From the UHGV virus genome UHGV-0153102: a stretch of 17,543 nt of DNA. One strand, 5' to 3'. The stretch comes from a virus. The position numbers and the translations under genes were made by a program. Below, in pieces: positions 438 through 17,543 of the stretch. Positions within the stretch are counted from its first letter, which is position 1, and the number at the start of each line of letters is the position of its first letter. The notes under the pieces were generated by a model. That model saw nothing but the letters and a program-made list of their open reading frames with translations, searched no databases and had not been told where the DNA came from.

Positions 438-466
438 AACATCGACGGCGAAGGTAACCCCATTAA

Positions 467-1270: not shown

Positions 1271-1278
1271 GAGGTGAA

Positions 1279-1312
1279 ATCACCTGTAAGATACTGAAAT
1301 AAAACAGGTGAT
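1279..1312. repeat. 9-bp perfect inverted repeat ATCACCTGT / ACAGGTGAT separated by 16 bp
   Basis: Seen directly at 1279-1287 and 1304-1312, inside the presumed prophage left end. Confidence 0.5.
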
Positions 1313-1332
1313 GGCTAGATGTGCGGATAAGG

Positions 1333-1350
1333 TCTATTTGATACCGATTG
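1333..1350 (+). repeat. left-end repeat copy 2 (shorter core ATTTGATACCGATTG)
   Basis: TCTATTTGATACCGATTG; shares the core ATTTGATACCGA with copy 1. Confidence 0.45.
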
Positions 1351-1385
1351 TGCAATAATTAGTCATTTATTATAAAATCGGCAAC

Positions 1386-1417
1386 TCATTTGATACTGTG
1401 GTTTTAGTCTTTTAAGG
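1386..1417 (+). repeat. left-end repeat copy 3 (candidate transposase end-binding site)
   Basis: TCATTTGATACTGTGGTTTTAGTCTTTTAAGG; same orientation as copy 1. Confidence 0.55.
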
Positions 1418-1470
1418 CGTTCCAAACAATGCGAAATACTCGATATAGTGCAAAATGCGGGCTAATGCTA

Positions 1471-2016: not shown

Positions 2017-2200
2017 TTTCTTTTCTTCCTATCAATTTGAAATTATTAACTTTTAGTGTTGTCAGCAACCATTGATCCACAATAGACAAAAGAAAGATGT
2101 TTTTTTGCTTTACATGAAGCAGAAGTGGATCAATACTTATATCAAACTTGATAACTAAGTTTAGTTATCAAATTTCGTAACTTTTTAGGATAGATGAATC
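2017..2200. promoter_or_regulatory. divergent repressor/early promoter and operator region (candidate transposition enhancer equivalent)
   Basis: 184-bp AT-rich spacer between divergent genes. Contains a 24-bp palindrome TTGATAACTAA-GT-TTAGTTATCAA (2148-2171) and a 10-bp inverted pair ATTGATCCAC (2071-2080) / GTGGATCAAT (2126-2135). Confidence 0.65.
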
Positions 2201-2431
2201 ATGGCGAGAAATGAAGTTAAGCCTGATTGGCATCCTCAAAGAATTTTGGGGGAAGTCAGAGCCAGAGAAGGAAGCATGAGGGCGCTGGCCCGTAAAGCTG
2301 GCGTGGGTCAGAACAATCTGTACAACGCGGTATACCGCCATGTTCCCAAGTATGAGGGGATTATCGCGGAATGCCTGGGGGTGCCGCCCGAGGAGATTTG
2401 GCCCAGCCGCTACATTCGTAAGGTCGCGTAA
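2201..2431 (+). CDS. ner: Ner-like DNA-binding protein (Ner/Nlp family)
   Basis: 76 aa; motifs DWHPQ...LARKAGV...NNLYNA...EIWPSRY resemble Mu Ner; position is immediately upstream of the transposase gene. Confidence 0.85.
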   Translation: MARNEVKPDWHPQRILGEVRAREGSMRALARKAGVGQNNLYNAVYRHVPKYEGIIAECLGVPPEEIWPSRYIRKVA

Positions 2432-2433
2432 TT

Positions 2434-4521
2434 ATGTTTGCTTCAGTCAAAGAACTGGTTGGATTACCGGGGATGCCGGGAACGGAGCAAGGCGTTCGCT
2501 ATTCAATCAGGAAGTATGCAACCAGCGAAACCAGCAGACGCCGCAAGAAAGGCGCTAAAGGTTTTGAATACAGCATTGACTGTTTACCTGAAGTGACACA
2601 GCAGGCATTACGCGAACGTTATGCCCTGCAACTGATGACGCAAAAAGCCGATGAATCACCGGCTCCGGTGGTGACAAAGGCCAGACGCTCGTCTGCCGTG
2701 GTTGATGCGGTGGAGGCATATCGCGGATCACCACAACTGATGGTCGAACGCCTCAATGCCCTGACTGAAAACCAGCGCCAGGTGGCAGACGCACGCATTG
2801 CGATCGTCAGTGAGGTGCTGAAATTCACGCAACAACCCGGTTTCAGCTGCGCTAAAGCTATCCGGTTCATCGTTGACCGCCTGTCACACTCGCAACTGGA
2901 TGAGCGCATTGTGGCAATGGTTGAGATAGCGAACGCCAGAAAGGGAAACAGTCGCGTGTTGAGTGAAATCACGCTGAAACGCTGGATTGCGGCCTTTAAT
3001 AAGGCACAGAACGCTGCTGAACGCCTGCTTTTGCTGGCACCAGGTAAACGCCAGGAAATAAAAGCCGAAGATATTAACTGGTTGCCCGAATTTCTGGCGC
3101 AGTATCGCCAGTCAAACGGCCGACCAATGACCGAGGCTTACGAGGATTTTGTTGCCGAATGGCAGCACCGGCACGCTGATGAGCCTTATATGCTCGATAT
3201 CATGCCGTCTTATGACACCATTCGCCGCGCAATGAAGAAACTGCCGGAAGTGGTGAAACAAAAAGGACGGGTTACCGGCAGTGAATACCGCCAGCTTGAG
3301 GGATTCACGCGCCGCGACTGGTCAAAAATGCCGGTGAATTATGTCTGGATTGGTGACGGTCACGGCATGAAGCTGAAATGCGCGCACCCGGTTCACGGGC
3401 GGCCATTCGCACCGGAAGTGACCTTTGTTATCGACGGTGGCACGCGCTTTGTGGTGGGCTGGAGCCTTGACCTGGCTGAAAATGTTTTCGCCGTAGCCGG
3501 TGCCATACAGCACGGTATTCGCCATCATGGCAAACCGTTTCTGTATTACTCGGATAATGGCTCCGGGGAAACCGCCGACGTCCTGGATAAGGAGATTGTG
3601 GGGATACTGCCACGACTGGGGATTAATCACCCGACAGGGATTGCCGGTAATCCGCAGGGACGGGGCATTATCGAACGGCTTAACCGCACATTACCGATGC
3701 GCATAGCCCGTAAATACCGCACCTATTTCGGGAAAGGAGCAGATCGCGAGACGTTACGTAAAACCAACCGCGATTTACGCTCGGCATTCAGTGCCCTGCA
3801 ACAGGGCAAACGGCTGAACGCCCGGCAGCAGTCAGCGATGCGTGATTTACCGTCCTGGTCTGAACTGATTGATGCCATTCGTGACGGTGTTGAGTGGTAC
3901 AACAACCGGCCGCACGATGAATTACCCATGAAGCCGAACGGTAAACATTACAGCCCGGCGGAGTTCAGAAAAAAACGCCTGGCGGAAGAGGACACGGAAA
4001 TTGAATGGCTGTCCGATGTTGAACTGCGGGATATGTTCCGGCCGATGGTGGAGCGCCCTGTAAGACGCTGTGAAATACGCTGGCTGAATAATATTTACTA
4101 CGCGCCCGAGCTGCGTGACGAGCATGGCCGTAAGGTACTTATCAGCTATGACATTCATGATGCCGAACGAATTACCGTGCGCCGCCCGGATGGCAGCGTG
4201 ATTTGCGAGGCGGTATGGGACGGCAATAAACGCGAAGCCTTCCCTGTCAGCGCGGAATACTACAAACAGCAGCAGCGCCTTAAAGGCATGCGTAAACGCG
4301 CAGAGGAAAAAATCCGTGATGCCGAGGATGAGGTTGTCAACGTGCTGGAGCACAAGCCGCAGGAGCCCTGGCTGGAAAACATATACCGCCCTGTGGGTAA
4401 TACGGTGACCGTTCAGCAACCGGTCGCTGACGATGAACCTGATGAAGAATACGAGCGTAATTTCCAGCGGGGATTGCAGTTGCTCGAAGCGAAATTAAAA
4501 GAAAGTGATCCGCTGGCCTGA
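2434..4521 (+). CDS. Mu-type DDE transposase (MuA homolog)
   Basis: 695 aa. N-terminal Mu-type DNA-binding domain (LVGLPGMPGTEQGV...GAKGFEY). Central DDE core (WIGDGHGMKL...YYSDNGSGE). Start lies 2 nt after the ner stop. Confidence 0.9.
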   Translation: MFASVKELVGLPGMPGTEQGVRYSIRKYATSETSRRRKKGAKGFEYSIDCLPEVTQQALRERYALQLMTQKADESPAPVVTKARRSSAVVDAVEAYRGSPQLMVERLNALTENQRQVADARIAIVSEVLKFTQQPGFSCAKAIRFIVDRLSHSQLDERIVAMVEIANARKGNSRVLSEITLKRWIAAFNKAQNAAERLLLLAPGKRQEIKAEDINWLPEFLAQYRQSNGRPMTEAYEDFVAEWQHRHADEPYMLDIMPSYDTIRRAMKKLPEVVKQKGRVTGSEYRQLEGFTRRDWSKMPVNYVWIGDGHGMKLKCAHPVHGRPFAPEVTFVIDGGTRFVVGWSLDLAENVFAVAGAIQHGIRHHGKPFLYYSDNGSGETADVLDKEIVGILPRLGINHPTGIAGNPQGRGIIERLNRTLPMRIARKYRTYFGKGADRETLRKTNRDLRSAFSALQQGKRLNARQQSAMRDLPSWSELIDAIRDGVEWYNNRPHDELPMKPNGKHYSPAEFRKKRLAEEDTEIEWLSDVELRDMFRPMVERPVRRCEIRWLNNIYYAPELRDEHGRKVLISYDIHDAERITVRRPDGSVICEAVWDGNKREAFPVSAEYYKQQQRLKGMRKRAEEKIRDAEDEVVNVLEHKPQEPWLENIYRPVGNTVTVQQPVADDEPDEEYERNFQRGLQLLEAKLKESDPLA

Positions 4522-4528
4522 AATAAAA

Positions 4529-4558
4529 AAATAACCCGAGGGGTGACTCAGGTTATTT
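4529..4558 (+). promoter_or_regulatory. imperfect hairpin between A and B (12-bp arms, one mismatch, 6-nt loop)
   Basis: AAATAACCCGAG-GGGTGA-CTCAGGTTATTT seen directly; followed by a T-containing tract but not a clean U-run. Confidence 0.35.
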
Positions 4559-4603
4559 GAGGTTTCAGTCTCGGAGAATGCTGTCTCAAGCGAGGTGAAT
4601 AAT

Positions 4604-5536
4604 ATGACCGATATTAACGATGTAATCAAGACCATTGATGAACTTATTGATGGCGGCGTACTGACGCAGTATGCCATCGCCAGAGAGGCGGGAATTTCCG
4701 ACGGCACATTATCGGCTTTCCGTAAGGGAAAATATAAAGGCGATAACGCTGCTGTGGCTGCTTCCCTGCGCTCCTGGTATGAGAACTGGAATAAACAAAG
4801 CGCACTGCCGGAACCGCCGCAGTTTGTGGAAACTCAGACAGTCCAGGAGCTGCGCGCACTGTTTCAGGCGGTTCGCCTGATGGGCTGTATTAACGTTATT
4901 GTGGGCGTACCGGGTGTGGGTAAAACGGCCACTGCCCGTAATTACTGCCAGGAGCAACCAAACACCTGGATGATCACCCTGTCACCCGCGCACTCCAGCG
5001 TCACGGAGTGTCTGCTGGAGCTGGCCGATGCGCTGGGGATTGATTACACCCGCGCGAACAAAGGGGCATTATCCCGCGCCATCCGCCGTCGCCTGATGGG
5101 AACGCGTGGACTGGTGATTGTGGATGAGGCGGATCATCTTGGTATTGACGGTCTGGAGCAACTCCGGGCAATTCAGGACGCCACGGGGATCGGGATGGTG
5201 CTTATTGGTAACCCGCGCGGATTGTTTAAAGGTGGACGCCGCGCCTTTGATGATTTATCGCGCCTGTTCAGCCGTCTTGCCCGTACAAAACAACTTCGCA
5301 AGGCCAAAAAGGCGGATGTGCTGGCCATTGCCATGGCGTGGGGGATCAGTGGTGAGGCCGAGCTGGCCGTCATGCAGGCTATCGCTGAAAAGCCGGGAGC
5401 GTTACGCGTTCTGACACATACGCTTAACCAGGCGTGGCTCACCGCCAGCGGTGAAGGCGCGGCGCTGACAGAAAAACATATTAATGCGGCCTTTAAAGAG
5501 GTTTATACCAACCCTGAATTACTCTCACAGGTGTGA
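4604..5536 (+). CDS. DNA transposition protein B (MuB homolog, AAA+ ATPase)
   Basis: Walker A motif GVPGVGKT. Walker B-like VIVDEADHL. N-terminal HTH-like region. GAGGTG RBS 8 nt upstream of ATG 4604; the ORF-track start at 4595 is a GTG inside that RBS. Confidence 0.9.
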   Translation: MTDINDVIKTIDELIDGGVLTQYAIAREAGISDGTLSAFRKGKYKGDNAAVAASLRSWYENWNKQSALPEPPQFVETQTVQELRALFQAVRLMGCINVIVGVPGVGKTATARNYCQEQPNTWMITLSPAHSSVTECLLELADALGIDYTRANKGALSRAIRRRLMGTRGLVIVDEADHLGIDGLEQLRAIQDATGIGMVLIGNPRGLFKGGRRAFDDLSRLFSRLARTKQLRKAKKADVLAIAMAWGISGEAELAVMQAIAEKPGALRVLTHTLNQAWLTASGEGAALTEKHINAAFKEVYTNPELLSQV

Positions 5537-5538
5537 TT

Positions 5539-5760
5539 ATGGCGGTATTTAATATTCCTGATATTTACGGACGCTTTTACCTGGTTAATTTCGATAACGT
5601 GAAGGTGATTTCACTGGCCGAAAATAAAGAATGTGGCGATTTACTTTTTGAATTTAATGACCGCACACGAATGGTGATATCTGCCGGACTTGATCGCGAA
5701 GGTGCGACAGAAGTTTACAGCGGAATATGCCGTTCTGTTGGTGCGAAACAAGTCAGCTAA
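5539..5760 (+). CDS. small early protein at the position of Mu kil; function not established
   Basis: 73-75 aa ORF beginning at the B stop (GTG 5533 or ATG 5539). Assignment is positional only. Confidence 0.55.
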   Translation: MAVFNIPDIYGRFYLVNFDNVKVISLAENKECGDLLFEFNDRTRMVISAGLDREGATEVYSGICRSVGAKQVS

Positions 5761-5772
5761 ATGAGGTGTTAT

Positions 5773-6027
5773 ATGAATATGCAATCCTGCGGTAACAAAA
5801 TGAATTTATTCGACTCCCTGAACAGCGCGCGCCGTCTGACCGAACTTGCCGGTGCGGTACTGGAACGCAGTAAGCGCTATCCGCAACGTTTTGCACTGAA
5901 AACCACGCCGCCGGTAGGCAACGTGCAGGGAACCGGTGAAATTGAAATCACCATACAGACCAACGGCCTGCGCCGCCGTGTGAAGGCCACCCGCATCAGC
6001 GGCTGCACGGTTTACTGGGAGGTGTGA
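5773..6027 (+). CDS. hypothetical early protein
   Basis: ORF with AGGTG shortly upstream; start is ambiguous between ATG 5761, 5773, 5779 and 5800. Confidence 0.5.
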   Translation: MNMQSCGNKMNLFDSLNSARRLTELAGAVLERSKRYPQRFALKTTPPVGNVQGTGEIEITIQTNGLRRRVKATRISGCTVYWEV

Positions 6028-6028
6028 G

Positions 6029-6310
6029 GTGAAAAAAAATCTCATTGCATGGGCGTGGTCGAGTGGTCTTATTGAGTTTGGTTACGTCCTGCCGGAAGGT
6101 GCATTGCCGATAGTTGCCGGAAAGCCTGCCACGGTACGGCATGTGATTGAGGTTATGGCGCGTCATGGACGTGATGAACAGGAGCAGTTACTGGTTCCGG
6201 GGATACCGGAAGCGGTGACGGAGGAAGAAGCCTTTAATGCCATGATTCGGTTCTGCCGTGAGGTCAGACGCCGGGTCAGTTATCCAAACAGAACGAGGAC
6301 CAGAGGATGA
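6029..6310 (+). CDS. hypothetical early protein (GTG start)
   Basis: 93-codon ORF starting 2 nt after the preceding stop, with GGAGGTG just upstream. Confidence 0.5.
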   Translation: MKKNLIAWAWSSGLIEFGYVLPEGALPIVAGKPATVRHVIEVMARHGRDEQEQLLVPGIPEAVTEEEAFNAMIRFCREVRRRVSYPNRTRTRG

Positions 6311-6579
6311 GTAAAGTCGTACACATTATTTTCGAATATAAGGAGCACGTTATCCATAAAAACGCTGATGGAACAGTGCGCATGGGGGTAAGTCTGGACA
6401 TACGTTCAACCGGGATAAAGCAGAAAGGTGATGGACCCGCCATGATTTTTGGGGTGGTTATGCTCGCGGAAAGCAGAAACTTCGCAGAGCTTGTGGCAAT
6501 GAAAGCCAGTGCATTCATGAAAGACAGGGGCATGGCTTCCGGGGTTATTAACGGTAATGAATTTAATCAGCAGGGGTAA
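6307..6579 (+). CDS. hypothetical early protein
   Basis: 90 aa; start overlaps the previous stop (ATGA); N-terminus MSKVVHIIFEY. Confidence 0.55.
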   Translation: MSKVVHIIFEYKEHVIHKNADGTVRMGVSLDIRSTGIKQKGDGPAMIFGVVMLAESRNFAELVAMKASAFMKDRGMASGVINGNEFNQQG

Positions 6580-6583
6580 TTCC

Positions 6584-6877
6584 ATGAGCAAAGTACGCGT
6601 TATTTTTGAATTTAACCACGTAATGCATGAAGTAAAGCCAGCCGGTAATGATAGTCAGGAAATCACGGAGGGGGTTACTGCCACTGTAAAAATCGAACGT
6701 GATACGGAGAACAGACCGACAGGCCCATGTGATGTTTATGCGCAAATTCTTAAATATCACAGCCCCACAATTATTCAGTTTCTGACAGATGAACTTCAGG
6801 GTTCCATGCAGGCTCTGGGGGTGAAAAGCAGCATTGAGCGCCGCTCCTTGCAGAACGCACCAGATACATTGCAATAA
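6584..6877 (+). CDS. hypothetical early protein
   Basis: Internal ATG at 6584 (MSKVRVIFEF...) preferred over the ORF-track start at 6557 because it lies just after the preceding stop. Confidence 0.55.
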   Translation: MSKVRVIFEFNHVMHEVKPAGNDSQEITEGVTATVKIERDTENRPTGPCDVYAQILKYHSPTIIQFLTDELQGSMQALGVKSSIERRSLQNAPDTLQ

Positions 6878-6888
6878 GGAAAAACAAA

Positions 6889-7419
6889 ATGGCAAAACGC
6901 GTTACAAAATTAAAGGCTGTAGCCGAGGCCGCACCGCAGACCCGCGAAGAAGTCAGCCGCGATATCCGCACCCTGGGCGATATTCAGCGAGAGGCGCTGC
7001 GCCTGGAAACGGCGATGAATGATGAAGTGGCAGAAATCACCGCCCGTTATACGCCGCAGATTGAAAATCTTAAAAAGCAAATCAAAGTGCTTTTTAAAGG
7101 GATTCAGGACTGGTGTAAAACCAACCGTGATGAGCTGACGAACGGCGGCAAAACCAAAACTGCCAATCTGACCACCGGAACGGTGTCATGGCGGCTGGGA
7201 ACGCCATCATGCAGCGTCAGCCGTGATGTGGAAGGTGTGATTGACACGCTGCGCCGTATGGGGCTTGAGCGATTCATCCGCACGAAAGAGGAAGTGAACA
7301 AGGAAGCCGTCCTGGCGGAGCCGGATGCGGTGAAAGGCATTGCCGGTATAAAGGTGAATAAAGGCGCTGAAAGTTTTTATGTCGAGCCTTTTGAACAGGA
7401 TGCCGGACTGAATAAATAA
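6889..7419 (+). CDS. gam: host-nuclease inhibitor protein Gam (Mu Gam-like, DNA-end binding)
   Basis: 176 aa; motifs MAK...DIQREALRLETAMNDEVAEIT...NRDELTNGGKTKTANL...VSWR...RFIRTKEEVNKEA match Mu Gam as recalled; AAGGA RBS upstream. Confidence 0.85.
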   Translation: MAKRVTKLKAVAEAAPQTREEVSRDIRTLGDIQREALRLETAMNDEVAEITARYTPQIENLKKQIKVLFKGIQDWCKTNRDELTNGGKTKTANLTTGTVSWRLGTPSCSVSRDVEGVIDTLRRMGLERFIRTKEEVNKEAVLAEPDAVKGIAGIKVNKGAESFYVEPFEQDAGLNK

Positions 7420-7516
7420 CACCGCATTAATTATTTAAATATCACTTCATTTTAATTATGGCGCTCGCGTCAGGGGACTGCTTGCGCCTGAAAGCTGAAA
7501 ATAAGGAATCGGAAAT

Positions 7517-8059
7517 ATGGCATATTTTTATTTCAAATTAGACCGTGTGCAGACAAATAAATATTTCACCAAATATCAACAGGCTGTTTTACCGCTACGC
7601 AACAGTATTCTTCGGACATTACTGAAAAATACAGGCGCTGCCGGATTGCGCTTAAAGCCGTTCGCCATGGACAGAATCAGTGAGTTTTATTTTGCCGGTG
7701 CTCTGCCTGCGGGCTGGCGTAAGCGCGATGATGTGGCTTTTATCGGTGGCGGACAGTGCTTTATAGCCAGACCTGATGAGTCATGCCCTGAAGGACCGGC
7801 GATTGCCGCAATGATTGAAGCCGCTGAACGCGAGTTAAGAAAGCGTCCTGATTTCCTTGTCTGGCTCTGTGAAAAGCTGGGGGTAATGAGAATCCCCTCC
7901 ATGTTTAACACGGACTCCTGGTGGACCCCTTCGTTCTCCCGTGATGCCCTGTGCGTGGTGTTTAAAGTGGGCGCTTATGGCAGGGAAATAAACGGATGTA
8001 TTCCTGAAGAATGCCAGGAAATTAAACATTCTGAATATGTGGCGCTGACGGAGGAATAA
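7517..8059 (+). CDS. hypothetical protein (accessory early block)
   Basis: 180-aa ORF with AAGGA RBS, following a 97-bp AT-rich spacer; no family recognised. Confidence 0.6.
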   Translation: MAYFYFKLDRVQTNKYFTKYQQAVLPLRNSILRTLLKNTGAAGLRLKPFAMDRISEFYFAGALPAGWRKRDDVAFIGGGQCFIARPDESCPEGPAIAAMIEAAERELRKRPDFLVWLCEKLGVMRIPSMFNTDSWWTPSFSRDALCVVFKVGAYGREINGCIPEECQEIKHSEYVALTEE

Positions 8060-8062
8060 TTC

Positions 8063-8596
8063 ATGATTGATGCAAAAGTGCTTGAAGGGGTTAAAAACTG
8101 GCTGCGTTTTTCTGGCCGTCTGACCAGTCGTTCTCTGGCAGAAAAAATGAATATGCCGCTATCCTCCATGGTTTATTTTCTGCGTGATGCGGTTGATGCC
8201 GGGGTGCTGACGGAATGTAACGGTTTTTATGATATTCCGCGTCCCCGCCCGGTGCAGCCGATTCGTCGCAAATGCAGACAGGAATCTGCGGCTGATGATG
8301 TTCAGTGGTGCAGCTTCAGAAAATCCCTGCCATGGATTGAGGGGCATGATATTCCGTCGATGGCGTGGGAATTTGCTCAGGGCGTTCTGACCTGTGAAAC
8401 CGTTTATGTGGTGGCTGAAGTTGATGAGCAGGCCATGAAAGAAGGCGTGCCCCAGTTTGTGATGGCGTATATCGACATTCGCCTGGGTGTCATTATCTGC
8501 GGTTTAAGCGGCTGGAATATCACCGAACATGTTCTGCGTTACCTGATTGTTGACCGGACGGCTGCGCCTGCCGGGATATCTGCGGAGGTGGCGTAA
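8063..8596 (+). CDS. hypothetical protein, possible N-terminal winged-helix
   Basis: 177-aa ORF with GGAGGA RBS; N-terminus LTSRSLAEKMNMPLSSMVYFLRDAVDAGVL is HTH-like. Confidence 0.6.
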   Translation: MIDAKVLEGVKNWLRFSGRLTSRSLAEKMNMPLSSMVYFLRDAVDAGVLTECNGFYDIPRPRPVQPIRRKCRQESAADDVQWCSFRKSLPWIEGHDIPSMAWEFAQGVLTCETVYVVAEVDEQAMKEGVPQFVMAYIDIRLGVIICGLSGWNITEHVLRYLIVDRTAAPAGISAEVA

Positions 8597-9111
8597 TGTT
8601 CTTTAAAACATCAAACCCTTCCGCGCTGGCTGCGTGGCAAAAATACCAGCAGGACTGCCAGACGGTAAAAGATGAGGCGAAACGCCTTGAGGCCGTGCTG
8701 AATGTTGCGTGCCGGTCGGTATTTGAATTCAGTATCAGTGGTTTTTGTTTTAAGGGACTGCGTTTTACGGAGGACAAATATCCTTTTCATCGCGACTTAT
8801 GGCGAAAACCGACTGCGTCGAATGGCTGGAGCTGCACACCGCGCACATCACGTATCCCTAAAACCCTGCGTGTTGCCTCTGATGAACTGAACAGTCTGTG
8901 GCGTGAATATTCACCCGTCACGTATGCCAGAACCGATGCGCTGTTGTTCTGGCTGGGTATTGATTTCTCGGCAATCCTGTTTGGCCCTGTGAAGTGGTTC
9001 TGCGTTGACGATGTGATTTACCTTCAGTGCGGCGTAAAACCCGCAAAACAGAAAATGACCGAAATTCTGTCTGATGAGTTTTATGCTGCCGAAAAGCGAG
9101 TCAGGGGGTGA
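8596..9111 (+). CDS. hypothetical protein
   Basis: 171-aa ORF; start overlaps the previous stop (TAATG). Confidence 0.6.
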   Translation: MFFKTSNPSALAAWQKYQQDCQTVKDEAKRLEAVLNVACRSVFEFSISGFCFKGLRFTEDKYPFHRDLWRKPTASNGWSCTPRTSRIPKTLRVASDELNSLWREYSPVTYARTDALLFWLGIDFSAILFGPVKWFCVDDVIYLQCGVKPAKQKMTEILSDEFYAAEKRVRG

Positions 9112-9114
9112 TGT

Positions 9115-9666
9115 ATGATGATTTTACAACACATGGGGCGAAAAGGTCGTACACCCGCTCATGTCCGCGCGTGGACACCTGAAGAAGATGCGCTACTGAT
9201 TGCGCTTTATTCATCCACCCCGGTTAAGGATATTGCTGCCAGAATAAAAAGAACTGTCTGGGCTGTATATAACCGGACTGGTGTATTGCGCAGTTCATAC
9301 CCGGAGTTACTGAAATATAAACACCCAAGATTTACACCTGATGAAGATAAGTTTATTCGAAAAAATGCCAGAACAATGACCTGCCAGCAAATGGGAGAAT
9401 ATCTCGGACGTAATAAAGATTCTGTCAGATGTCGGGCAGGAATGATTGGTGCTGGATTAACAAAGTGCGGAGAGTTACGCCCCGGCACGCGCATATCTGA
9501 TGATGATGTACGTCTTATACGTGCGCTGCGTGATTCCGATTACCCACGCCGTCTGTCATTCCGGGAAATTGGCGAAAAGTTTGGAATATCTGAACATTCT
9601 GCTCACGCAGTTTATTACCGTCGCCGGACTGCCGAGGACGCTGTATTACGGGAGTTAACGCCATGA
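9115..9666 (+). CDS. hypothetical protein with three internal HTH-like repeats (Myb/SANT-like pattern)
   Basis: Three repeated segments start WTPEEDALLIALY..., FTPDEDKFIRKN... and ISDDDVRLIRALR.... Confidence 0.6.
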   Translation: MMILQHMGRKGRTPAHVRAWTPEEDALLIALYSSTPVKDIAARIKRTVWAVYNRTGVLRSSYPELLKYKHPRFTPDEDKFIRKNARTMTCQQMGEYLGRNKDSVRCRAGMIGAGLTKCGELRPGTRISDDDVRLIRALRDSDYPRRLSFREIGEKFGISEHSAHAVYYRRRTAEDAVLRELTP

Positions 9667-9992
9667 TAACGACCTTATTTGTTGAATCAGATGAACCTCT
9701 TGTGTGTGCCGCCGGAATGCCGCTCTGTGGCGGAACGCTGACCGGTGTTTATTTCGGGGATTTACGCGGTTATCCCTGGCATTCACTGAATGATGCTTTC
9801 CCACCTGATATGGAGGCTGTCGTGCTGATTGTTCAGTATGGTCACCGTCAGGAGCTGCGCATCGGCCATATGGGGTATGAAGGCTTTTTTGTTGATGAAG
9901 AAACCGGAGCCTGCCTTGAAGATGAAGACGGACAGGTGACGCACTGGTGTCATATTTCGGCTTTACCGGAATTACGGGAGGTGAATGCGTGA
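9663..9992 (+). CDS. hypothetical phage protein, possibly DUF551-like
   Basis: 109 aa; start overlaps the previous stop (ATGA). C-terminal VTHWCHISALPELRE resembles the VTHW..LPE ending recalled for DUF551 proteins. Confidence 0.5.
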   Translation: MITTLFVESDEPLVCAAGMPLCGGTLTGVYFGDLRGYPWHSLNDAFPPDMEAVVLIVQYGHRQELRIGHMGYEGFFVDEETGACLEDEDGQVTHWCHISALPELREVNA

Positions 9993-10339
9993 GAAGTTAT
10001 ATTGATAATGAAAAGCTGGAGACAATAAGCGACTGTCTTAGCTTGCTGGCAAAAATCAAAGAAACTATTGAAGAGATTAAATTTCAGCTTGAATACGCAC
10101 CATGTGGCGATGATGCATGGCGTAATGCTGCCAGAAAAGCACTGGCTGTCTTTCAGAAACAACGCCGGGCTGTTGAATACCGCCTTGCTGTATTGCGCCA
10201 GGAGGAAAAGGAAAGAAATATAAGACGTCATGAACGCGTTAATGACTTCCTTGTTCGTGAATTAAAAGGGCGCGTGCCGGAGTCGGTATTTTTTGAATGT
10301 GAGGCTATAGCCCGTAGCAAAGCACTGGAAACAGATTAA
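9989..10339 (+). CDS. hypothetical protein, predicted helical/coiled-coil
   Basis: GTG at 9989 overlaps the preceding stop (GTGA) and has GGGAGG upstream. The ORF-track start at 9947 would overlap the upstream gene by 46 nt. Confidence 0.5.
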   Translation: MRSYIDNEKLETISDCLSLLAKIKETIEEIKFQLEYAPCGDDAWRNAARKALAVFQKQRRAVEYRLAVLRQEEKERNIRRHERVNDFLVRELKGRVPESVFFECEAIARSKALETD

Positions 10340-10354
10340 GCAGGCAGGTGAATA

Positions 10355-10663
10355 ATGAGTATTGAATTAAGATCGTCTTATGAATATCGCAAAATCCTTA
10401 TCGCCGGAGGCATGAAACCGGAAGATGCAGAGAAATTCGTTTCTTTTATGGATAAAGAATGTGACAAGCGGGATATGCCAGAAATTATTATGGATGACAT
10501 GATTCTGGATTCAGCCGTGGCGTTAAGTCCGTTATGGATTGTGCATACTCTTGCGGAAATAGCTAAAAGAAGTGACAAGCAGGCGGCTGTCGCCGCCCTG
10601 CGATTACTGGCTGAATTAAGTTGTTCAGTCAATCCCAATACGTTCTTTGACGAACCTGGTTAA
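10355..10663 (+). CDS. hypothetical protein
   Basis: 102-aa ORF with AGGTGA RBS; its 3' end overlaps the minus-strand moron by 39 nt. Confidence 0.55.
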   Translation: MSIELRSSYEYRKILIAGGMKPEDAEKFVSFMDKECDKRDMPEIIMDDMILDSAVALSPLWIVHTLAEIAKRSDKQAAVAALRLLAELSCSVNPNTFFDEPG

Positions 10664-11035
10664 CATTGATTTGGTAACTTCTTTAATTAGATCAAATGGT
10701 GCGTCTGTAAACTCCTTTTTGATTCTTTCAAGGATTGGTTTTTTTCTCAGGGCGTTAGCTAAATCATGCCCCTGCTGGGTAAGCATAATGGGCGTGTTTC
10801 TGAAACCAACGCCCAGAGAATGGAAAAAGAAACCAATATATTTGGGTGTTTCTGACTGCATATCACCATTAACAATTGAGCCATTATCAGCGAGAAGCAT
10901 AAGATGAAAAACTTTTTTATCCTTTTCCTCTCCTTCTGCCTCAGCCATGCCCAGATCCTGTAGTGTAAGGAAAGGTGTTTCAGCATCCTGAAAAGTTGTG
11001 AGAATACTTAATACTTCATCGTAATCTATTTTCAT
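10625..11035 (-). CDS. opposite-strand AT-rich moron encoding a 136-aa protein of unknown function
   Basis: Only sizeable minus-strand ORF inside the rightward early operon. The surrounding ~400 bp is visibly more AT-rich than the flanking phage DNA. Own RBS (AAAGG) upstream of the ATG at 11033-11035. Confidence 0.65.
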   Translation of the reverse strand: MKIDYDEVLSILTTFQDAETPFLTLQDLGMAEAEGEEKDKKVFHLMLLADNGSIVNGDMQSETPKYIGFFFHSLGVGFRNTPIMLTQQGHDLANALRKKPILERIKKEFTDAPFDLIKEVTKSMLTRFVKERIGID

Positions 11036-11057
11036 ATCGATACCTTTAGTTTTATCC

Positions 11058-11085
11058 GGGCGGCGTTGCCATGCCGCCTGTTGTT
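11058..11085. promoter_or_regulatory. GC hairpin (GGGCGGC / GCCGCC(T), 8-nt loop) followed by TGTTGTT, in the spacer between the moron start and the gemA start
   Basis: Inverted repeat seen directly at 11058-11064 and 11073-11079. Confidence 0.4.
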
Positions 11086-11099
11086 ACGGAGACACGATA

Positions 11100-11612
11100 A
11101 TGAATCGCGCTTCCCTGATTACCTTAATACATGTCGCAAAACGCGATCTACAGCTTGACCATGAGACCTACACATCCGTACTACTGGCAGCCACCGGCAA
11201 ACCCAGTTGCCGGGATATGTCACCGGATGAGTTATCCCGCGTGCTGGATGTTTTCAAAAAACGCGGTTTTAAAGTGCGTCAGAAGCCGGTTAACCGGGCC
11301 TTAAAACCGGGTACGGTGACCGCCAAAATTCGCGCCATCTGGAAGGTGATGCACCGGCAGGGCTTTATCTCTGATGGCGGGGAAACAGCCCTTAACCGCT
11401 GGGTGAAATCGCAGACGGCCGCTCAGAACGGCGGCGAAGGTGTGGCTAACTGGCAGTGGCTGGAACAACACCCCGCGCTGGCCTCTGATGTGCTGGAGCG
11501 TCTCAAACGCTGGCACCGCCGCAAGATGCTGGATGTGCTGGGGATGCCAGCGCGTACAGTGATGAGTTATGAGCGCGTTTGCAGGCTGTATGAAGAATCC
11601 TCCCCCTTTTAA
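11100..11612 (+). CDS. gemA: GemA-like protein (Mu gp16 family)
   Basis: 170 aa; N-terminus MNRASLITLIHVAKRDLQLD...ATGKPSCRDMSPDEL resembles Mu GemA as recalled; lies just upstream of mor. Confidence 0.75.
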   Translation: MNRASLITLIHVAKRDLQLDHETYTSVLLAATGKPSCRDMSPDELSRVLDVFKKRGFKVRQKPVNRALKPGTVTAKIRAIWKVMHRQGFISDGGETALNRWVKSQTAAQNGGEGVANWQWLEQHPALASDVLERLKRWHRRKMLDVLGMPARTVMSYERVCRLYEESSPF

Positions 11613-11620
11613 CCCCAAAC

Positions 11621-11647
11621 CCCGCCACAGCGCGGGATTTTTATTTT
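11621..11647 (+). terminator. intrinsic terminator or attenuator after gemA
   Basis: CCCGC-CACAGC-GCGGG hairpin at 11621-11636 followed by ATTTTTATTTT. Confidence 0.6.
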
Positions 11648-11682
11648 AAACTTGCCCTGTGTAATGATGACCGGAGGCGGGT

Positions 11683-12105
11683 ATGGCTGAAACACAGATG
11701 AGCATGTTTGGTGACAGCGAACAGCTGCACGCGCTGATTGACCGTCTGGATGATATTCCTGATGATGAGCTGAAAAAGAACTGGCCCGGCACGCTGCGGG
11801 ACCTGGTTGATGTGATCAGTGCTGAACTGCACCGTCAGGGGATTGAACCTGCTCAGGCGGGAATGCTTGCCCGTAAGGTTGCAGCCGCACAGGCCGGGTA
11901 CATGGGCGGGCGTGGTTATTATCTCCCGGTCGGTGAATCCCTTTTCACCGAACTGCGCAATAATGAAATTTTTTCCCGCTGGAGCCAGGGCGAAAAAATT
12001 GAAACCCTGCGCCGCCACTACCAGATGTCAGAGACGCAGATTTACTCCGTTATCCGCAACCAGCGTCGCCTGCATCAGGAACGCACGCAGCCACGGCTTT
12101 TCTGA
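11683..12105 (+). CDS. mor: Mor/C-family transcriptional activator (single copy)
   Basis: 140 aa; acidic N-terminus; C-terminal HTH region ETLRRHYQMSETQIYSVIRNQRRL resembles Mu Mor/C; GGAGG RBS upstream. Confidence 0.75.
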   Translation: MAETQMSMFGDSEQLHALIDRLDDIPDDELKKNWPGTLRDLVDVISAELHRQGIEPAQAGMLARKVAAAQAGYMGGRGYYLPVGESLFTELRNNEIFSRWSQGEKIETLRRHYQMSETQIYSVIRNQRRLHQERTQPRLF

Positions 12106-12176
12106 TATTCCGCAAATCCTGCCCACTTTTTCCCACGGTTACGCTGACTCAGAGAACACCATGAGACAGCGTAACA

Positions 12177-12677
12177 ATGCCAAAACTCCCCGCACCCCTG
12201 CGTAAAAAGCTGATTGCCCTTGTTCTGGCCGGAGCCGGGACGTTCACCATTGCCACGCACTACACCGGCTACTGGGAAGGGAAAGAAAACACCACGTACA
12301 TTGATCCCACCGGCACCCCCACCATCTGTTACGGCCATACCGGCCCGGATGTGAAACCGGGGATGACAAAAACTGATGAAGAGTGTCTGGAGCTGCTGGA
12401 AAAGGACATGAAATGGGCCTTTGCGGCTATCGATCGTCATGTTCAGGTGCCGCTTACCCGTGGTCAGACGGTGGCGCTGGCCTCCTGGATTTTCTGGGCC
12501 GGTGAAACGAACTTTCGCAACTCCACGCTCCTGCGCCTTATCAATGCCGGGCAGATGCCCGCGTCCTGTAAGCAGTATATCCGCTGGATTTATTCAAAGG
12601 GGGTAAAACTCCCCGGTCTTGAGGCCCGCCGTTCGGCGGATGAATGGTTATGTCGTTACGATTTGCCGAAAGTCTGA
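12177..12677 (+). CDS. lys: SAR endolysin (phage lysozyme with N-terminal signal-anchor-release segment)
   Basis: 166 aa; N-terminus MPKLPAPLRKKLIALVLAGAGTFTIA is a weakly hydrophobic SAR-like segment; downstream motifs ICYGHTGPD and WIFWAGETNFRNSTLLRLINAG resemble Mu Lys. Confidence 0.85.
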   Translation: MPKLPAPLRKKLIALVLAGAGTFTIATHYTGYWEGKENTTYIDPTGTPTICYGHTGPDVKPGMTKTDEECLELLEKDMKWAFAAIDRHVQVPLTRGQTVALASWIFWAGETNFRNSTLLRLINAGQMPASCKQYIRWIYSKGVKLPGLEARRSADEWLCRYDLPKV

Positions 12678-12789
12678 ACCGCTTCTGGCGACCGCTCATG
12701 ATTGCGCTGCTGTGTGCCGTTGTGCTGCTGCGGGGTGTGCTGTGTCTGCGGTGAACAATCCCTTACCGGCCCTGATTGCCGGAGGCTGT

Positions 12790-13140
12790 ATGGCGGCGCT
12801 GGGGGTGATGAGCGTGCTGGCTGCCGTGGTATGGGGAATGCACCAGAAGACGCAGCGCCTTGAGGACAATAATCATGTGCTTGTGCGTGAACGGGACGAA
12901 GCCCGTCTGGTGCTGGCAAACCAGCAACGCACCCTGCAACTCATTTCACAAATCAGCAAGGCGGCCACGAATGAAAAACAGCAGAACATGCAGCACAGCG
13001 AGGAACAGCAGAGCATTGTCCGCCGGTCACTGGCAACGGTGCCTGCTGCCGCTGTGCCTGTGCCTGATGATGTGGCTGACCGGGTGCGGCGGGCCGTCTG
13101 TGAAATTCGTCCCTGTGCCGCCGGTGCCGATCCCCGCTGA
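12790..13140 (+). CDS. i-spanin (Rz-like inner-membrane spanin component)
   Basis: N-terminal transmembrane segment AALGVMSVLAAVVWGM then a helical, charged region. GGAGG precedes ATG 12790; GTG 12751 is an alternative start. The ORF-track start at 12619 is rejected as an upstream run-on. Confidence 0.6.
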   Translation: MAALGVMSVLAAVVWGMHQKTQRLEDNNHVLVRERDEARLVLANQQRTLQLISQISKAATNEKQQNMQHSEEQQSIVRRSLATVPAAAVPVPDDVADRVRRAVCEIRPCAAGADPR

Positions 13141-13342
13141 ATGGCTGGCTGACTGCCTGGTCCCTCCCGCGCCGCAGCCGTTCACGTTTGGTGCATCGGT
13201 CACTTACAACCTGCAACTGCTGGCGGTGATTAAAAACTGCAACGTGGACAAGGCCAGCATCCGCCGTCTGGAGACACAGCGACAGCATGAATTTACTGAT
13301 ATGGCCGGAACGACTGCTGTTCCGGCAGGAAAGACGAAGTAA
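13016..13342 (+). CDS. o-spanin (Rz1-like outer-membrane lipoprotein), +1 frame, overlapping and extending beyond the i-spanin
   Basis: Alternative-frame ORF with a lipobox-like WLTGC followed by a proline-rich segment (VPVPPVPIPAEW...PPAPQP). Start uncertain: TTG 13016 gives a plausible signal peptide; ATG 12971 gives an overlong one. Confidence 0.5.
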   Translation: MSAGHWQRCLLPLCLCLMMWLTGCGGPSVKFVPVPPVPIPAEWLADCLVPPAPQPFTFGASVTYNLQLLAVIKNCNVDKASIRRLETQRQHEFTDMAGTTAVPAGKTK

Positions 13343-13352
13343 GGAAAAAGGT

Positions 13353-13580
13353 ATGGATGATTCAGATTGTGCTCAGGCAGTCATGGAGCGTGCAACAGAA
13401 CGCGCCCTTTGTGACCGGCTGACACGTAAGCGCCGGGTGGCGGAGACACCGGGCAGGCGTGTATGCGCGGACTGCGGGGGTGACATTCCGGCTGCCCGTC
13501 TGGTTGCCGTGCCGGATGCCATCCGTTGTGTGAACTGCCAGAACATCATGGAGGCCGGTCATGTGGGTCAGCATCGTTAA
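13353..13580 (+). CDS. TraR/DksA-family C4 zinc-finger protein
   Basis: 75 aa from ATG 13353 with AAGGAAAAAGG upstream; CxxC-(17 residues)-CxxC spacing (CADCGG...CVNCQ). Confidence 0.65.
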   Translation: MDDSDCAQAVMERATERALCDRLTRKRRVAETPGRRVCADCGGDIPAARLVAVPDAIRCVNCQNIMEAGHVGQHR

Positions 13581-13872
13581 AGATTATGTCGTGCCGATCC
13601 TGTCGGCAACGGCCACAGCCGGGGGGATCTTCATGGCGCTGATGCGCAAAACCTTTGTCCCCCGCGAGGCCTTTGAAAAACTCTCCGACCGGGTTGAGCG
13701 GGTGGAGAGCCGGATTTCCGGCCTGCCCACGCAGCAGGAGGTGAACAGACTCAATATCGAAATCACCACCCTGCGCGGTGAGCTTAAGGCCACCAATGCC
13801 ACCCTGAAATCCGTCTCCCATCAGAACGAACTGCTGCTGGAGCAGGCTGTAAGGAAAAAACACAATGAGTGA
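13561..13872 (+). CDS. membrane protein with one N-terminal transmembrane helix and a coiled-coil region (possibly lysis-associated)
   Basis: 103 aa; GGAGG 6 nt upstream of the ATG; hydrophobic YVVPILSATATAGGIFMALM followed by a heptad-like charged region. Confidence 0.55.
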   Translation: MWVSIVKDYVVPILSATATAGGIFMALMRKTFVPREAFEKLSDRVERVESRISGLPTQQEVNRLNIEITTLRGELKATNATLKSVSHQNELLLEQAVRKKHNE

Positions 13873-14155
13873 TATCATTACTGAAGATCAGCGTCTTGTC
13901 ATTCTGCGGTCGCTGGCGGATTACAACGGCGAACTGGGCGAATCCGTGCTTCAGGACTGCCTGGATGATTACGGTCACCGCGTGTCCCGCGACACCGTTC
14001 ATACCCACATTGCCTGGCTTGCCGAGCAGGGACTGGTGCGTAAGCGCACGCTTGTTAACGGTTATTTCATCGCTGAACTGACCGGCCGGGGTCAGGATGT
14101 GGCGGAAGGCCGCGCCACCGTTCCGGGTGTGAAGAAACCACGCGCAAGGGGGTAA
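13865..14155 (+). CDS. hypothetical protein, possible winged-helix DNA-binding
   Basis: 96-aa ORF overlapping the previous stop, immediately upstream of the terminase small subunit. Confidence 0.55.
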   Translation: MSDIITEDQRLVILRSLADYNGELGESVLQDCLDDYGHRVSRDTVHTHIAWLAEQGLVRKRTLVNGYFIAELTGRGQDVAEGRATVPGVKKPRARG

Positions 14156-14157
14156 CG

Positions 14158-14739
14158 ATGGATAAGCCAACGCGTGGCCGTGTACGCAAGGTGGATTTGC
14201 TCCCCAACAGCATCCGTAAGCCGCTGCTGGAAATGCTGCGTGAAAAACGTCTGACGCAGGTCCAGATCCGCGAGGAAATCAACCGTCTGATCCGTGAAGC
14301 AGGTCTGCCGGAAGAGCAGCAGCTCTCACCGGCGGCCATCAGCCGGGAAGCCTCCCGTAATGAGCTGATTGCCCGTAATCTGCGTGATTTACGCGAGCAG
14401 ACAAAAGCCATGATGGCCGAACTGGGGGATAAGCCGACCGGTGAAACCACGGCACTGATTCTGGAGATGTCCCGTGCCCTGATGTACCGCCGTCTGCGTG
14501 CCGCCACCGAATCCCTGAACAGCGACAGCGATGTGGATATGCGCCTTATTAAGGACATCCTCCTGTCGGCACAGCGTGCAGAAAGTGCCGCCGAGCGCAG
14601 CATTAAGCGTGAAAAAGAAATCCGGGCCGCATTTGCTGAAGAGATGGCGAATGCGGTCACCGATGAGTTGCGCGGCGTGGATGGCATGAGCGAGCAGATC
14701 GAATTCCGTATCAGGCAGATGCTGCTGGGTAAGGCGTAG
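14158..14739 (+). CDS. terminase small subunit (Mu gp27-like)
   Basis: 193 aa; N-terminus ...VRKVDLLPNSIRKPLLEMLREKRLTQVQIREEINRLIREAGL resembles Mu gp27 as recalled; sits upstream of the large terminase. Confidence 0.7.
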   Translation: MDKPTRGRVRKVDLLPNSIRKPLLEMLREKRLTQVQIREEINRLIREAGLPEEQQLSPAAISREASRNELIARNLRDLREQTKAMMAELGDKPTGETTALILEMSRALMYRRLRAATESLNSDSDVDMRLIKDILLSAQRAESAAERSIKREKEIRAAFAEEMANAVTDELRGVDGMSEQIEFRIRQMLLGKA

Positions 14740-14749
14740 GAGGTGAATC

Positions 14750-14998
14750 ATGGCAACAGATAACCGCTCACTGATGAGCAGTGCCCATCAGAAAGCATTC
14801 AGTCTTGCAACACAGTTACCTCCTGAAACCATAAAGGTATGTCGTGAGTTGACTGAACTCAGCATTGCCGGGGAAATATCCCTGGAACAACTGCATTCGC
14901 TGCTGGCAGAGGCTGCCACTGATGAGTTGAGCGGCGTGGACGTGATGACTGAAGAGCTTGAGTCCCGAATCAAAAGCATTCTGACAGGTAAAGCATGA
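14750..14998 (+). CDS. small protein whose C-terminal ~28 residues duplicate the terminase small-subunit C-terminus
   Basis: 82-aa ORF; its stop overlaps the terminase-large ATG (ATGA). Its C-terminus AATDELSGVDVMTEELESRIKSILTGKA parallels the TerS C-terminus AVTDELRGVDGMSEQIEFRIRQMLLGKA; the similarity is also visible in the DNA. Confidence 0.55.
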   Translation: MATDNRSLMSSAHQKAFSLATQLPPETIKVCRELTELSIAGEISLEQLHSLLAEAATDELSGVDVMTEELESRIKSILTGKA

Positions 14999-16662
14999 TG
15001 AACAAAGCCAGAGAAACGTCGCCTTCACTGATGCAAATGACGCCTCCCCGCAAAATTGATCTGTCAGGTGAAAAAGCCCTGCTGGGCGTGGATGTGCCGG
15101 ACAGCCTTGATTTGCCCGGTGATATGCCGGTGTTTCTGGATTATCAGGCCCGCTGGTTTGCAGATGAAAGTCAGGTCTGCATCGCGGAGAAATCCCGCCG
15201 CACCGGGCTTACCTGGGCGGAAGCCGGGCGTAACGTCATTACTGCTGCAAAACCGAAGCGTCGTGGTGGCCGCAATGTGTTTTATGTGGGATCAAAGCAG
15301 GAGATGGCGCTGGAATATATTTCTGCCTGCGCGCTGTTCTCCCGTGCCTTTAACCAGCTGGCAGATGCTGATGTGTATGAGCAGACATTCTGGGATCGGG
15401 ATAAAAAAGAAGAAATTTTGACCTACATGATCCGCTTTCCGAACAGTGGATTCAAAATTCAGGCATTGTCTTCCCGTCCGTCAAACCTGCGCGGCCTTCA
15501 GGGGGATGTGGTGATTGATGAAGCCGCGTTCCACGAGTCACTGGATGAGCTTCTCAAGGCGGCAATGGCGCTCACTATGTGGGGCGCGCGCGTGCGTATT
15601 ATCTCCACGCATAACGGCGTCGATAATCTGTTTAATCAGTACATTCAGGAAGCCCGCGAGGGGCGCAAGGATTACAGCGTCCACCGCATAACCCTGGATG
15701 ATGCCATTGCGGACGGGCTGTACCGTCGTATCTGTTACGTCACCGATCAGGAATGGTCACCGGAAAGCGAGCAGAAATGGCGTGATGATCTCTACAAAAA
15801 CGCCCCGACCCGTGAGGATGCCGACGAGGAATACGGCTGTATCCCGAAAAAATCCGGCGGTGCCTATATCCCCCACGCGCTTATTGAAATGGCGATGATC
15901 CGCGACATCCCGATTCTGACGTTTGAAGCCCCGGACAACTTCATCAGCCGTGCCGCATGGCTGCGTGAATCGGAAGTTTTAACCTGGTGTGAAGAACATT
16001 TAAAACCGCTTTTAGAGAAATTAAATCCCCGTTCCCGCTTCAGCTTCGGGGAAGACTTTGCCCGCACCGGTGACCTGTCCTGCTTTGTGCTGCTGGAAAT
16101 CACCGAATCCCTGGCAAAGCGCGAGGTGTTTCGCGTGGAGCTGCGCAACCTGCCGTATGCCCAGCAGGAACAGGTGATGATGTACATCCTGACCCGCGTT
16201 CCGGCGCTGGTCGGTGCGGCGTTCGACGCCACCGGTAACGGCGGCTATCTGGCAGAGGCCGCACTGCTGGCCTTTGGCCCGGATATCATCGACTGCGTGA
16301 TGTTGTCGCCGAAGTGGTACGGCGAGTGGATGCCAAAACTGAAAGCCGAGTTTGAAGATCAGAATATCCTCGTCGCCCGCCATCAGACCACGCTTGATGA
16401 TTTGCGCCATGTGAAGGTAGTGAATGGTATCCCGCAAATCGACAAGGGGCGCACGAAGGACCAGAACGCAACGGCTGCGAACGCCCGCCGCCATGGTGAT
16501 TTTGCCGTGGCGCTCTGTATGGCAAACCGGGCGTCATACATGGAGGGCTTCATCCTGGATGAATCAGCCTGTCAGGCGCTACCGGAGCGGTCGCGGGCAA
16601 TGGAGGGCGGTTATCGTGATGACGATGAGGCATATCATGAATTTGATCGGGGGGGCTGGTAG
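14995..16662 (+). CDS. terminase large subunit (Mu gp28-like)
   Basis: 555-aa ORF in the position of Mu gp28; contains a Walker B-like VVIDEAAFHE motif. Confidence 0.8.
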   Translation: MMNKARETSPSLMQMTPPRKIDLSGEKALLGVDVPDSLDLPGDMPVFLDYQARWFADESQVCIAEKSRRTGLTWAEAGRNVITAAKPKRRGGRNVFYVGSKQEMALEYISACALFSRAFNQLADADVYEQTFWDRDKKEEILTYMIRFPNSGFKIQALSSRPSNLRGLQGDVVIDEAAFHESLDELLKAAMALTMWGARVRIISTHNGVDNLFNQYIQEAREGRKDYSVHRITLDDAIADGLYRRICYVTDQEWSPESEQKWRDDLYKNAPTREDADEEYGCIPKKSGGAYIPHALIEMAMIRDIPILTFEAPDNFISRAAWLRESEVLTWCEEHLKPLLEKLNPRSRFSFGEDFARTGDLSCFVLLEITESLAKREVFRVELRNLPYAQQEQVMMYILTRVPALVGAAFDATGNGGYLAEAALLAFGPDIIDCVMLSPKWYGEWMPKLKAEFEDQNILVARHQTTLDDLRHVKVVNGIPQIDKGRTKDQNATAANARRHGDFAVALCMANRASYMEGFILDESACQALPERSRAMEGGYRDDDEAYHEFDRGGW

Positions 16663-17507
16663 TGGGACGCATCATTGATACTGACGGAAAACCTTTCTCC
16701 TTTGACCCGGAGATGCAGAGTGCCGCGCTGGATATTCCGCAGATTGCCAGCCGTTATATTGAACATCCGGCTTCGGGTATCACCCCGAACCGGGCGGCGC
16801 AGTGCCTTCGCGGGGCTGAACGTGGCGATCTGATTGCCCAGTCCGATCTGGCCGCTGATATTGAAGAAAAGGACACCCACCTTTTTGCGGAGCTGGGCAA
16901 GCGACGTCTTGCCATTCAGGGGGTGCCATGGAGTATTGAGCCGCCACCGAACGCCAGCGCGAATGAGAAAAAGGACGCGGAAATGCTCGACGAATATCTG
17001 CATTCCGCAGACTGGTTTGATGCCATGCTGTTTGACGCCACGGATGCCATCCTGAAGGGCTATTCCTGCATGGAAATTGAGCACGGGATGCTCGGTAAAA
17101 TGCACATCATCCGCGCCATCCGCTGGCGTGACAGCGGGCATTTCTGCCTTAACCCGGATGATTTGAGCGAACTGCGGCTGTGTGACGGCAGCCATGCCGG
17201 GGTGGCGTTTCAGCCCTTTGGCTGGATAGTGCATCAGTCGCGTTCACGCACTGGCTACGGTGGTGCGACGGGGCTTGTCAGAACGCTTATCTGGCCGTTC
17301 ATTTTCAAAAACTATTCCGTGCGCGATCTGGCTGAATTTCTGGAGGTGTACGGCCTGCCGATGAAGGTCGGTAAATACCCGTCCGGGGCAACACCGGAGC
17401 AGAAAAGCGCCCTGATGCGGGCGGTGATGGATATCGGGCGACGTACAGGCGGGATCATCCCAGCCGGGATGTCGCTGGAGTTTCAGGCGGCAGCGAACGG
17501 TCAGGCC
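16662..17507 (+). CDS. portal protein (Mu gp29-like), 3'-truncated at the contig/adapter junction
   Basis: GTG start overlaps the terminase stop (TAGTG). Translation GRIIDTDGKPFSFDPEMQ...TPNRAAQCLRGAERGDL...LVRTLIWPFIFKNYSVRDLAEFLEVYGLPMKVGKYP resembles Mu gp29 as recalled. The frame runs into adapter sequence at 17508. Confidence 0.8.
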
Positions 17508-17543
17508 CTGTCTCTTATACACATCTCCGAGCCCACGAGACAG
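17508..17543 (+). other. Illumina Nextera transposase adapter read-through (non-biological)
   Basis: CTGTCTCTTATACACATCTCCGAGCCCACGAGAC(AG) matches the Nextera adapter read-through sequence (Tn5 mosaic end plus adapter). Confidence 0.95.

Follow-up and report, generated by a model that had tools for sequence, protein, structure and literature searches.

A Nextera Adapter Tail at the Right End of an Escherichia coli Mu-like Prophage Contig

The UHGV virus genome UHGV-0153102, a contig of 17,543 nucleotides that was analysed over its full length and is referred to here as the window, ends in 36 bases that are almost certainly (probability of about 0.97) an Illumina Nextera (Tn5 tagmentation) adapter, which entered the assembly with reads that had not been trimmed; no observation speaks against this explanation. 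The tail is an adapter foreign to the locus, whose true continuation is a different one. It represents a routine artefact of assembly rather than a biological feature. The portal gene of a Mu-like prophage is interrupted at the same point. The features of the window and the positions of the same adapter in deposited phage records are collected in Table 1.

Table 1. Features of the window and positions of the adapter in deposited phage records
Record	Feature	Position	Strand	Basis
Window	Host flank: atoB 3′ end and yfaP, interrupted by the left end of the prophage	1..1224	+	E. coli homology; Pfam Thiolase_C, DUF2135
Window	Left ~16.3 kb of a Mu-like prophage	1225..17507	+	Collinear E. coli prophages; Pfam; TOE17 annotation
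Window	Genuine 5′ part of a Mu-type portal gene, codons 1-282 of 529	16662..17507	+	Pfam PF06074; 100% identity to TOE17
Window	Tn5 mosaic end (ME), CTGTCTCTTATACACATCT, 19 nt	17508..17526	+	Exact unique match; transposase-recognition part, reads outward from the insert
Window	CCGAGCCCACGAGAC, Nextera-specific read-1 read-through part (i7 side)	17527..17541	+	Within the 34/34 match
Window	AG, first two i7 sample-index bases; compatible with AGGCAGAA, not diagnostic	17542..17543	+	IMG/VR continuations
NC_070684.1/MH000603.1 (NC_070684.1 is Streptococcus phage D1024)	36-mer	33824-33866		
NC_049392.1/LR597637.1 (NC_049392.1 is Escherichia phage ESSI2_ev239)	36-mer	29123-29160		
MZ092003.1	Adapter	28032-28067		
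MK373781.1	Adapter	146326-146360		
MH973725.1	Adapter	6673-6707		
LT985568/573/588/592, LT993247, LT996076	Adapter	near record ends		

Adapter Match at the Contig End

A pattern search of the whole window places CTGTCTCTTATACACATCTCCGAGCCCACGAGAC at 17508-17541 on the plus strand, with all 34 of its 34 positions matched. This string consists of CTGTCTCTTATACACATCT followed by CCGAGCCCACGAGAC and represents the Nextera read-1 read-through. Together with the bases that precede it, the complete tail reads ...GGTCAGGCC|CTGTCTCTTATACACATCTCCGAGCCCACGAGACAG. It fills the last 36 bases of the contig on the plus strand and points outward; 34 of these bases belong to the constant adapter, and the AG at the very end belongs to the variable index. 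The first-pass annotation had proposed a Nextera read-through at 17508-17543. These coordinates are exact and are refined here by the division into 34 constant bases and two index bases, and the identification agrees with the exact match to the read-1 3′ adapter used for tagmentation libraries.

The match is unique. No second CTGTCTCTTATACACATCTCCGAGCCCACGAGAC site is present on either strand of the 17,543-nt window when up to three mismatches are allowed, and none of 200 dinucleotide-preserving shuffles of the window contains the string. For an exact 34-mer in 17.5 kb, counting both strands, the chance expectation is ~1.2e-16. The ME (19/19) also occurs only once on the two strands of the window, where it abuts the insert sequence directly. 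TruSeq, P5, and P7 11-mers are found nowhere in the window. At the left contig end there is no adapter, as E. coli atoB-yfaP homology begins at base 1. An 11-mer near position 488 that is common with the read-2 Nextera adapter lies inside native yfaP and was rejected as a chance match. Scans of the window for tRNA genes and Rfam families return no matches.

The same 34-mer has been named as a custom adapter for removal in a metagenome announcement (PMC6460022). It also served as the read-1 adapter (cutadapt -a) of a tagmentation (ChIPmentation) library, in which its read-2 partner is CTGTCTCTTATACACATCTGACGCTGCCGACGA (bioRxiv 10.1101/2021.08.13.456193). Its first part, CTGTCTCTTATACACATCT, is the core of the “WT ME” oligonucleotide of Tn5 biochemistry and differs at three positions from the natural Tn5 outside end, CTGACTCTTATACACAAGT (PMC3347997, Table 1).

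Nextera artefacts are recognised by an ME that is followed by CCGAGCCCACGAGAC (read 1) or GACGCTGCCGACGA (read 2), with an 8-nt index and P7, ATCTCGTATGCCGTCTTCTGCTTG, after the constant part. An Illumina Nextera read-1 3′ read-through therefore runs from CTGTCTCTTATACACATCT and CCGAGCCCACGAGAC through the i7 index into ATCTCGTATGCCGTCTTCTGCTTG. The tail of the window shares with this layout the whole of the constant part (34/34), a terminal position, an outward orientation, and two next bases that are compatible with an index. Unlike a full read-through, it comprises 36 nt only: two index bases (AG) follow position 17541, and the other six as well as P7 fall beyond the contig end.

Native Sequence Beyond the Junction

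Comparison with relatives shows where the genome stops. The last 901 bases of the window were used as a query against 5,426 complete E. coli genomes, and the locus is present in 231 complete E. coli records. All 20 matches listed, out of these 231 records, span query positions 1-865, which corresponds to window position 17507, and extend no further. E. coli TOE17, one of the 20 listed, is 100% identical up to 17507. Matches of the whole window to Mu-like prophages, which lie at many chromosomal sites, likewise stop at this base. In the TOE17 alignment, identity is maintained through ...GGTCAGGCC and is followed by complete divergence, the native continuation being GATCCGTTTGAAACCATGATT....

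Independent assemblies of the locus were sought through the 555-aa protein encoded immediately upstream (14995-16662), and nine assemblies with the identical protein were retrieved from NCBI, ENA, and Logan. In all nine, the 555-aa protein gene is accompanied by a 529-aa Portal_Mu gene and then a Mu F gene. Past the junction point, TOE17 and each of the nine read GATCC(G/A)TTTGAAACC, and the mosaic end is present in none of the nine. GCA_966505585.1 is 100% identical to the window across the preceding 5.5 kb.

The first-pass annotation had named the same 36-nt sequence, contiguous within independent long-read assemblies of the locus, as the observation that would speak against an adapter. This comparison did not refute the adapter: a search at E ≤ 10 finds the 36-mer in none of 20,395 complete E. 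coli records, and no independent assembly of the locus has it at this position. The genome-adapter junction itself, i.e., GGCAGCGAACGGTCAGGCC joined to CTGTCTCTTATACACATCT, has no match in IMG/VR, the GTDB species-representative genomes, or the JGI metagenomes.

The Interrupted Portal Gene

The reading frame that opens at 16662 matches the Pfam profile PF06074 (Portal_Mu) with an E value of 6.5e-54 and a score of 183.9 bits (gathering cut-off 23.9). Residues 62-281 align with positions 2-218 of the 336 positions of the profile, and positions 219-336 are missing. The genuine part of the frame is a clear member of the Mu portal gp29 family (PF06074 Portal_Mu/DUF935) and comprises 282 residues, ending in ...EFQAAANGQA. 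The junction 17507|17508 falls between two codons of the portal frame, and the adapter continues this frame without a shift and without a stop codon, which adds 12 spurious codons (LSLIHISEPTRQ) after residue 282. The TOE17 orthologue is identical to residue 282, proceeds with DPFETMISWGER..., and reaches a total of 529 aa; 247 portal codons are absent from the window. The earlier estimate that the last ~12 predicted codons are not real is confirmed as exactly 12.

The portal gene is cut by the contig end and not by biology. The statement of the first-pass annotation that the gene is artificially truncated holds, with 247 codons lost. The causal step in that statement, by which the gene would be truncated on account of the adapter, needs refinement: it is the contig end that truncates the gene, and the adapter marks the break, which it need not have caused.

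Unlike a full gene of the gp29 family, the copy in the window is a 282-codon fragment with a 12-codon artificial tail. The gene order typical of Mu-like phages, in which a Gp27-like protein is followed by the 555-aa protein, the portal, and Mu F, is represented in the window by its upstream part only. Mu F is absent from the window, and relatives carry both a complete portal gene and Mu F. The 555-aa protein is encoded on the plus strand. Its gene separates the Gp27-like gene from the portal, at the place where Mu has its large terminase subunit. The protein has no Pfam match at E ≤ 0.001 and is annotated in RefSeq as a “hypothetical protein”; in the assembly collection, the index lists 1,012 blocks with exactly this sequence.

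Prophage and Host Context

The sequence upstream of the junction is that of an E. coli chromosome and a prophage inserted into it. The host flank is 99.8% identical to the atoB/yfaP sequence of E. coli strains such as 14EC017. The prophage part is collinear, at 97-98% identity, with Mu-like prophages that occupy different sites in many E. coli genomes, and its Pfam matches include Mu-transpos_C, Phage-MuB_C, and HTH_35. Its left arm encodes an HTH repressor (minus strand), a Ner-like HTH_35 protein, and a 695-aa MuA-type transposase. These are accompanied by a MuB-type AAA ATPase, early genes, Gam, Mor, and lysis genes including a lysozyme. The arm ends with the Gp27-like protein, the 555-aa protein in the terminase position, and the portal fragment.

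The related prophage of TOE17 has a length of ~39 kb and splits cheB. Its right end lies ~23 kb past the position equivalent to window position 17507, and the genes beyond that point encode head, tail, and baseplate proteins, an invertase, and the Com/Mom region. Because the TOE17 prophage runs this much further, to a right end in the split cheB, the right end of the window is not a phage end, in keeping with the earlier warning that any such end inferred here would be false. The RefSeq annotation of the TOE17 prophage (L037) places a minus-strand “tRNA-OTHER” at 19345-19424, with the Mu F-like head morphogenesis gene on one side and a virion morphogenesis gene on the other; this region corresponds to sequence beyond the window end.

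The prophage of the window is inserted in yfaP, beside atoB, and homology to prophages elsewhere starts at 1221-1227. On account of these host and prophage homology limits, the ORF at 467-1255 (minus strand) is a truncated yfaP (DUF2135), and its apparent TTG start codon belongs to the end of the prophage. A terminal 5′-TG, as expected for a Mu-type element, is not obvious at the left junction (…AACG|TATAACCAGG…). Three direct copies of ATTTGATACCGA are found just inside the left end, at 1241-1252, 1336-1347, and 1388-1399, the third having the form ATTTGATACTGT, with spacings of 95 and 52 nt. Their position and arrangement suggest that they are putative transposase-binding sites like Mu L1-L3.

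In many E. coli genomes, similarity to the host flank begins only at window position 32 or 55, and the start of the atoB fragment (~30-54 nt) may be polymorphic among strains. The start of the window is not an artefact, because two genomes match it from base 1.

The Same Tail in Other Sequences

The exact 36-mer is found in 35 unrelated IMG/VR stretches, and the 25 nt upstream of it are different in every contig. It is always located near the end of the retrieved stretch and faces outward, such that plus-strand matches lie near right ends and minus-strand matches near left ends. All but one of these stretches (34/35) extend past AG; 33 continue with the index AGGCAGAA, and one reads AGACTCCT. 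The 33 stretches with AGGCAGAA stop at varying points, the longest passing through ATCTCGTATGCCGTCTTCTGCTTG into poly-A. This continuation into index and P7 is the layout of a flow-cell library molecule, and it is on the basis of this layout that the final AG of the window is assigned to the first two index bases. One IMG/VR stretch (L030) is the only other to end after exactly the same 36 nt. An origin in the same project as the window was rejected for this stretch, which resembles no E. coli genome and is unrelated.

Most of the adapter-bearing IMG/VR contigs derive from one metagenome, 3300045988. Several stretches form pairs from single contigs, i.e., L009 and L019 (3300045988_128065), L033 and L010 (…_069050), and L027 and L017 (…_019790), and the lengths of L009 and L019 sum exactly to the full contig 3300045988_128065. 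In these pairs, adapter, index, P7, and poly-A face a reverse-complement adapter, and the contigs appear to be two unrelated pieces glued via adapter sequence. Two further stretches, L028 (11448 nt) and L029 (11687 nt), terminate in the adapter on both sides, and their perfect terminal inverted repeats, of 185 and 122 nt, respectively, are made of adapter and genomic sequence. Artefactual inverted termini of this type could pass for biological terminal repeats.

In the GenBank phage collection, the genuine part of the query matches only two Mu-like inserts, and the matches to its final ~36-45 nt come from phages that infect Streptococcus, Paenibacillus, Pseudomonas, and other hosts. Several unannotated “Bacteriophage sp.” records (LT98xxxx) have the match within about 80 nt of the record end. 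The adapter-bearing genomes include two RefSeq records, and the adapter is internal in some of them; in two deposited phage records, it lies under an annotated “hypothetical protein”. These occurrences suggest adapter-mediated misjoins or untrimmed ends in the public records. Adapter contamination is of the kind screened for by NCBI VecScreen and FCS-adaptor. The window carries the same 36-mer and is one more instance of such contamination in deposited records, with no substantive difference.

Formation of the Tail and Alternative Explanations

According to the adapter reading, Tn5 transposase would have cut the sample DNA between 17507 and 17508 during library preparation and ligated the adapter. 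With an insert shorter than the read length, read 1 would enter the ME and then CCGAGCCCACGAGAC, the i7 index, and P7. Adapters that were not removed, or were removed incompletely, would lead the assembler to keep genome-to-adapter k-mers and to stop inside the adapter; the native path past 17507 would read GATCCGTTTGAA.... The junction 17507|17508 would thereby be the site of a genuine Tn5 cut, introduced in vitro. A tail of k-1 bases would correspond to an assembler k-mer size of 37, an estimate that was set aside. We infer both this read-through route and the reason for which the assembler ended the contig at 17507. The stop could have been caused by a coverage gap, or by a graph branch or repeat, and a repeat-induced branch is possible because the portal region is present in 2-4 copies in certain E. 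coli genomes.

With low probability, the position of the break might reflect a real feature of the source genome. Such a feature could be a repeat boundary from a second, partly identical Mu-like prophage, or the endpoint of a rearrangement or deletion in the portal gene, with an adapter-bearing read capping the contig. In that case, the real cause of the break position would be routine prophage mosaicism.

An in vivo insertion into the portal gene, by a natural Tn5/IS50 or by an engineered mosaic-end mini-Tn5 of a mutant library, with the contig breaking at the repeat, is a very improbable origin of the tail. It has in its favor that the tail begins with a 19-nt end of the Tn5 family (the mosaic end being derived from Tn5 ends), oriented as for a transposon entered from its flank, and that transposon ends often break assemblies. 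However, the 19-mer is the engineered ME and not the natural outside end, from which it is separated by the three differences given above. A natural insertion would show the outside or the inside end at the junction, and its second junction, with the 9-bp target-site duplication, would lie past the end of the contig. The interior of Tn5/IS50 or of a marker is not present either; the next 15 nt are the synthetic, Nextera-specific primer-site sequence CCGAGCCCACGAGAC. In addition, the same 36-mer elsewhere runs into index, P7, and poly-A, and it is present in no complete E. coli genome.

No better standing is given to a chimeric join or a Nextera mate-pair junction adapter, which marks an internal circularisation junction. 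Mate-pair junctions also start with the mosaic end, and some IMG/VR contigs carry two back-to-back adapters internally. A mate-pair junction has the reverse complement of the mosaic end, AGATGTGTATAAGAGACAG, immediately after the mosaic end itself. The window, by contrast, has CCGAGCCCACGAGAC after the ME, and the reverse-complement ME occurs nowhere on either strand. Even a mate-pair junction would still be an artefact.

The least credible reading is that of native sequence that resembles an adapter by chance, or of a strain-specific portal variant, for which the sole point is the open, in-frame continuation of the portal; against it stand the chance expectation given above, the drop from 100% identity with the closest relatives to noise exactly at 17507|17508, the end of the Portal_Mu profile match at residue 281, and the presence of the 36-mer in phages of unrelated hosts.

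Implications

The value of identifying the adapter tail lies in quality control and data hygiene only, and the tail can be used to flag the entire assembly for quality. If it is kept, the portal protein acquires a false C-terminus (…AAANGQA-LSLIHISEPTRQ) and looks like a partial protein or a novel variant. The contig end could be mistaken for a prophage or packaging boundary, when ~23 kb of prophage, including the 247 portal codons, are simply missing. Adapter tails also give rise to spurious similarity, which here links an E. coli prophage to phage records of Streptococcus, Paenibacillus, and Pseudomonas, and they can seed chimeric assembly joins. The remedy is to trim 17508-17543 and to mark the portal gene as 3′-partial. 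The tail is also a reminder that the same adapter is present in public phage records.
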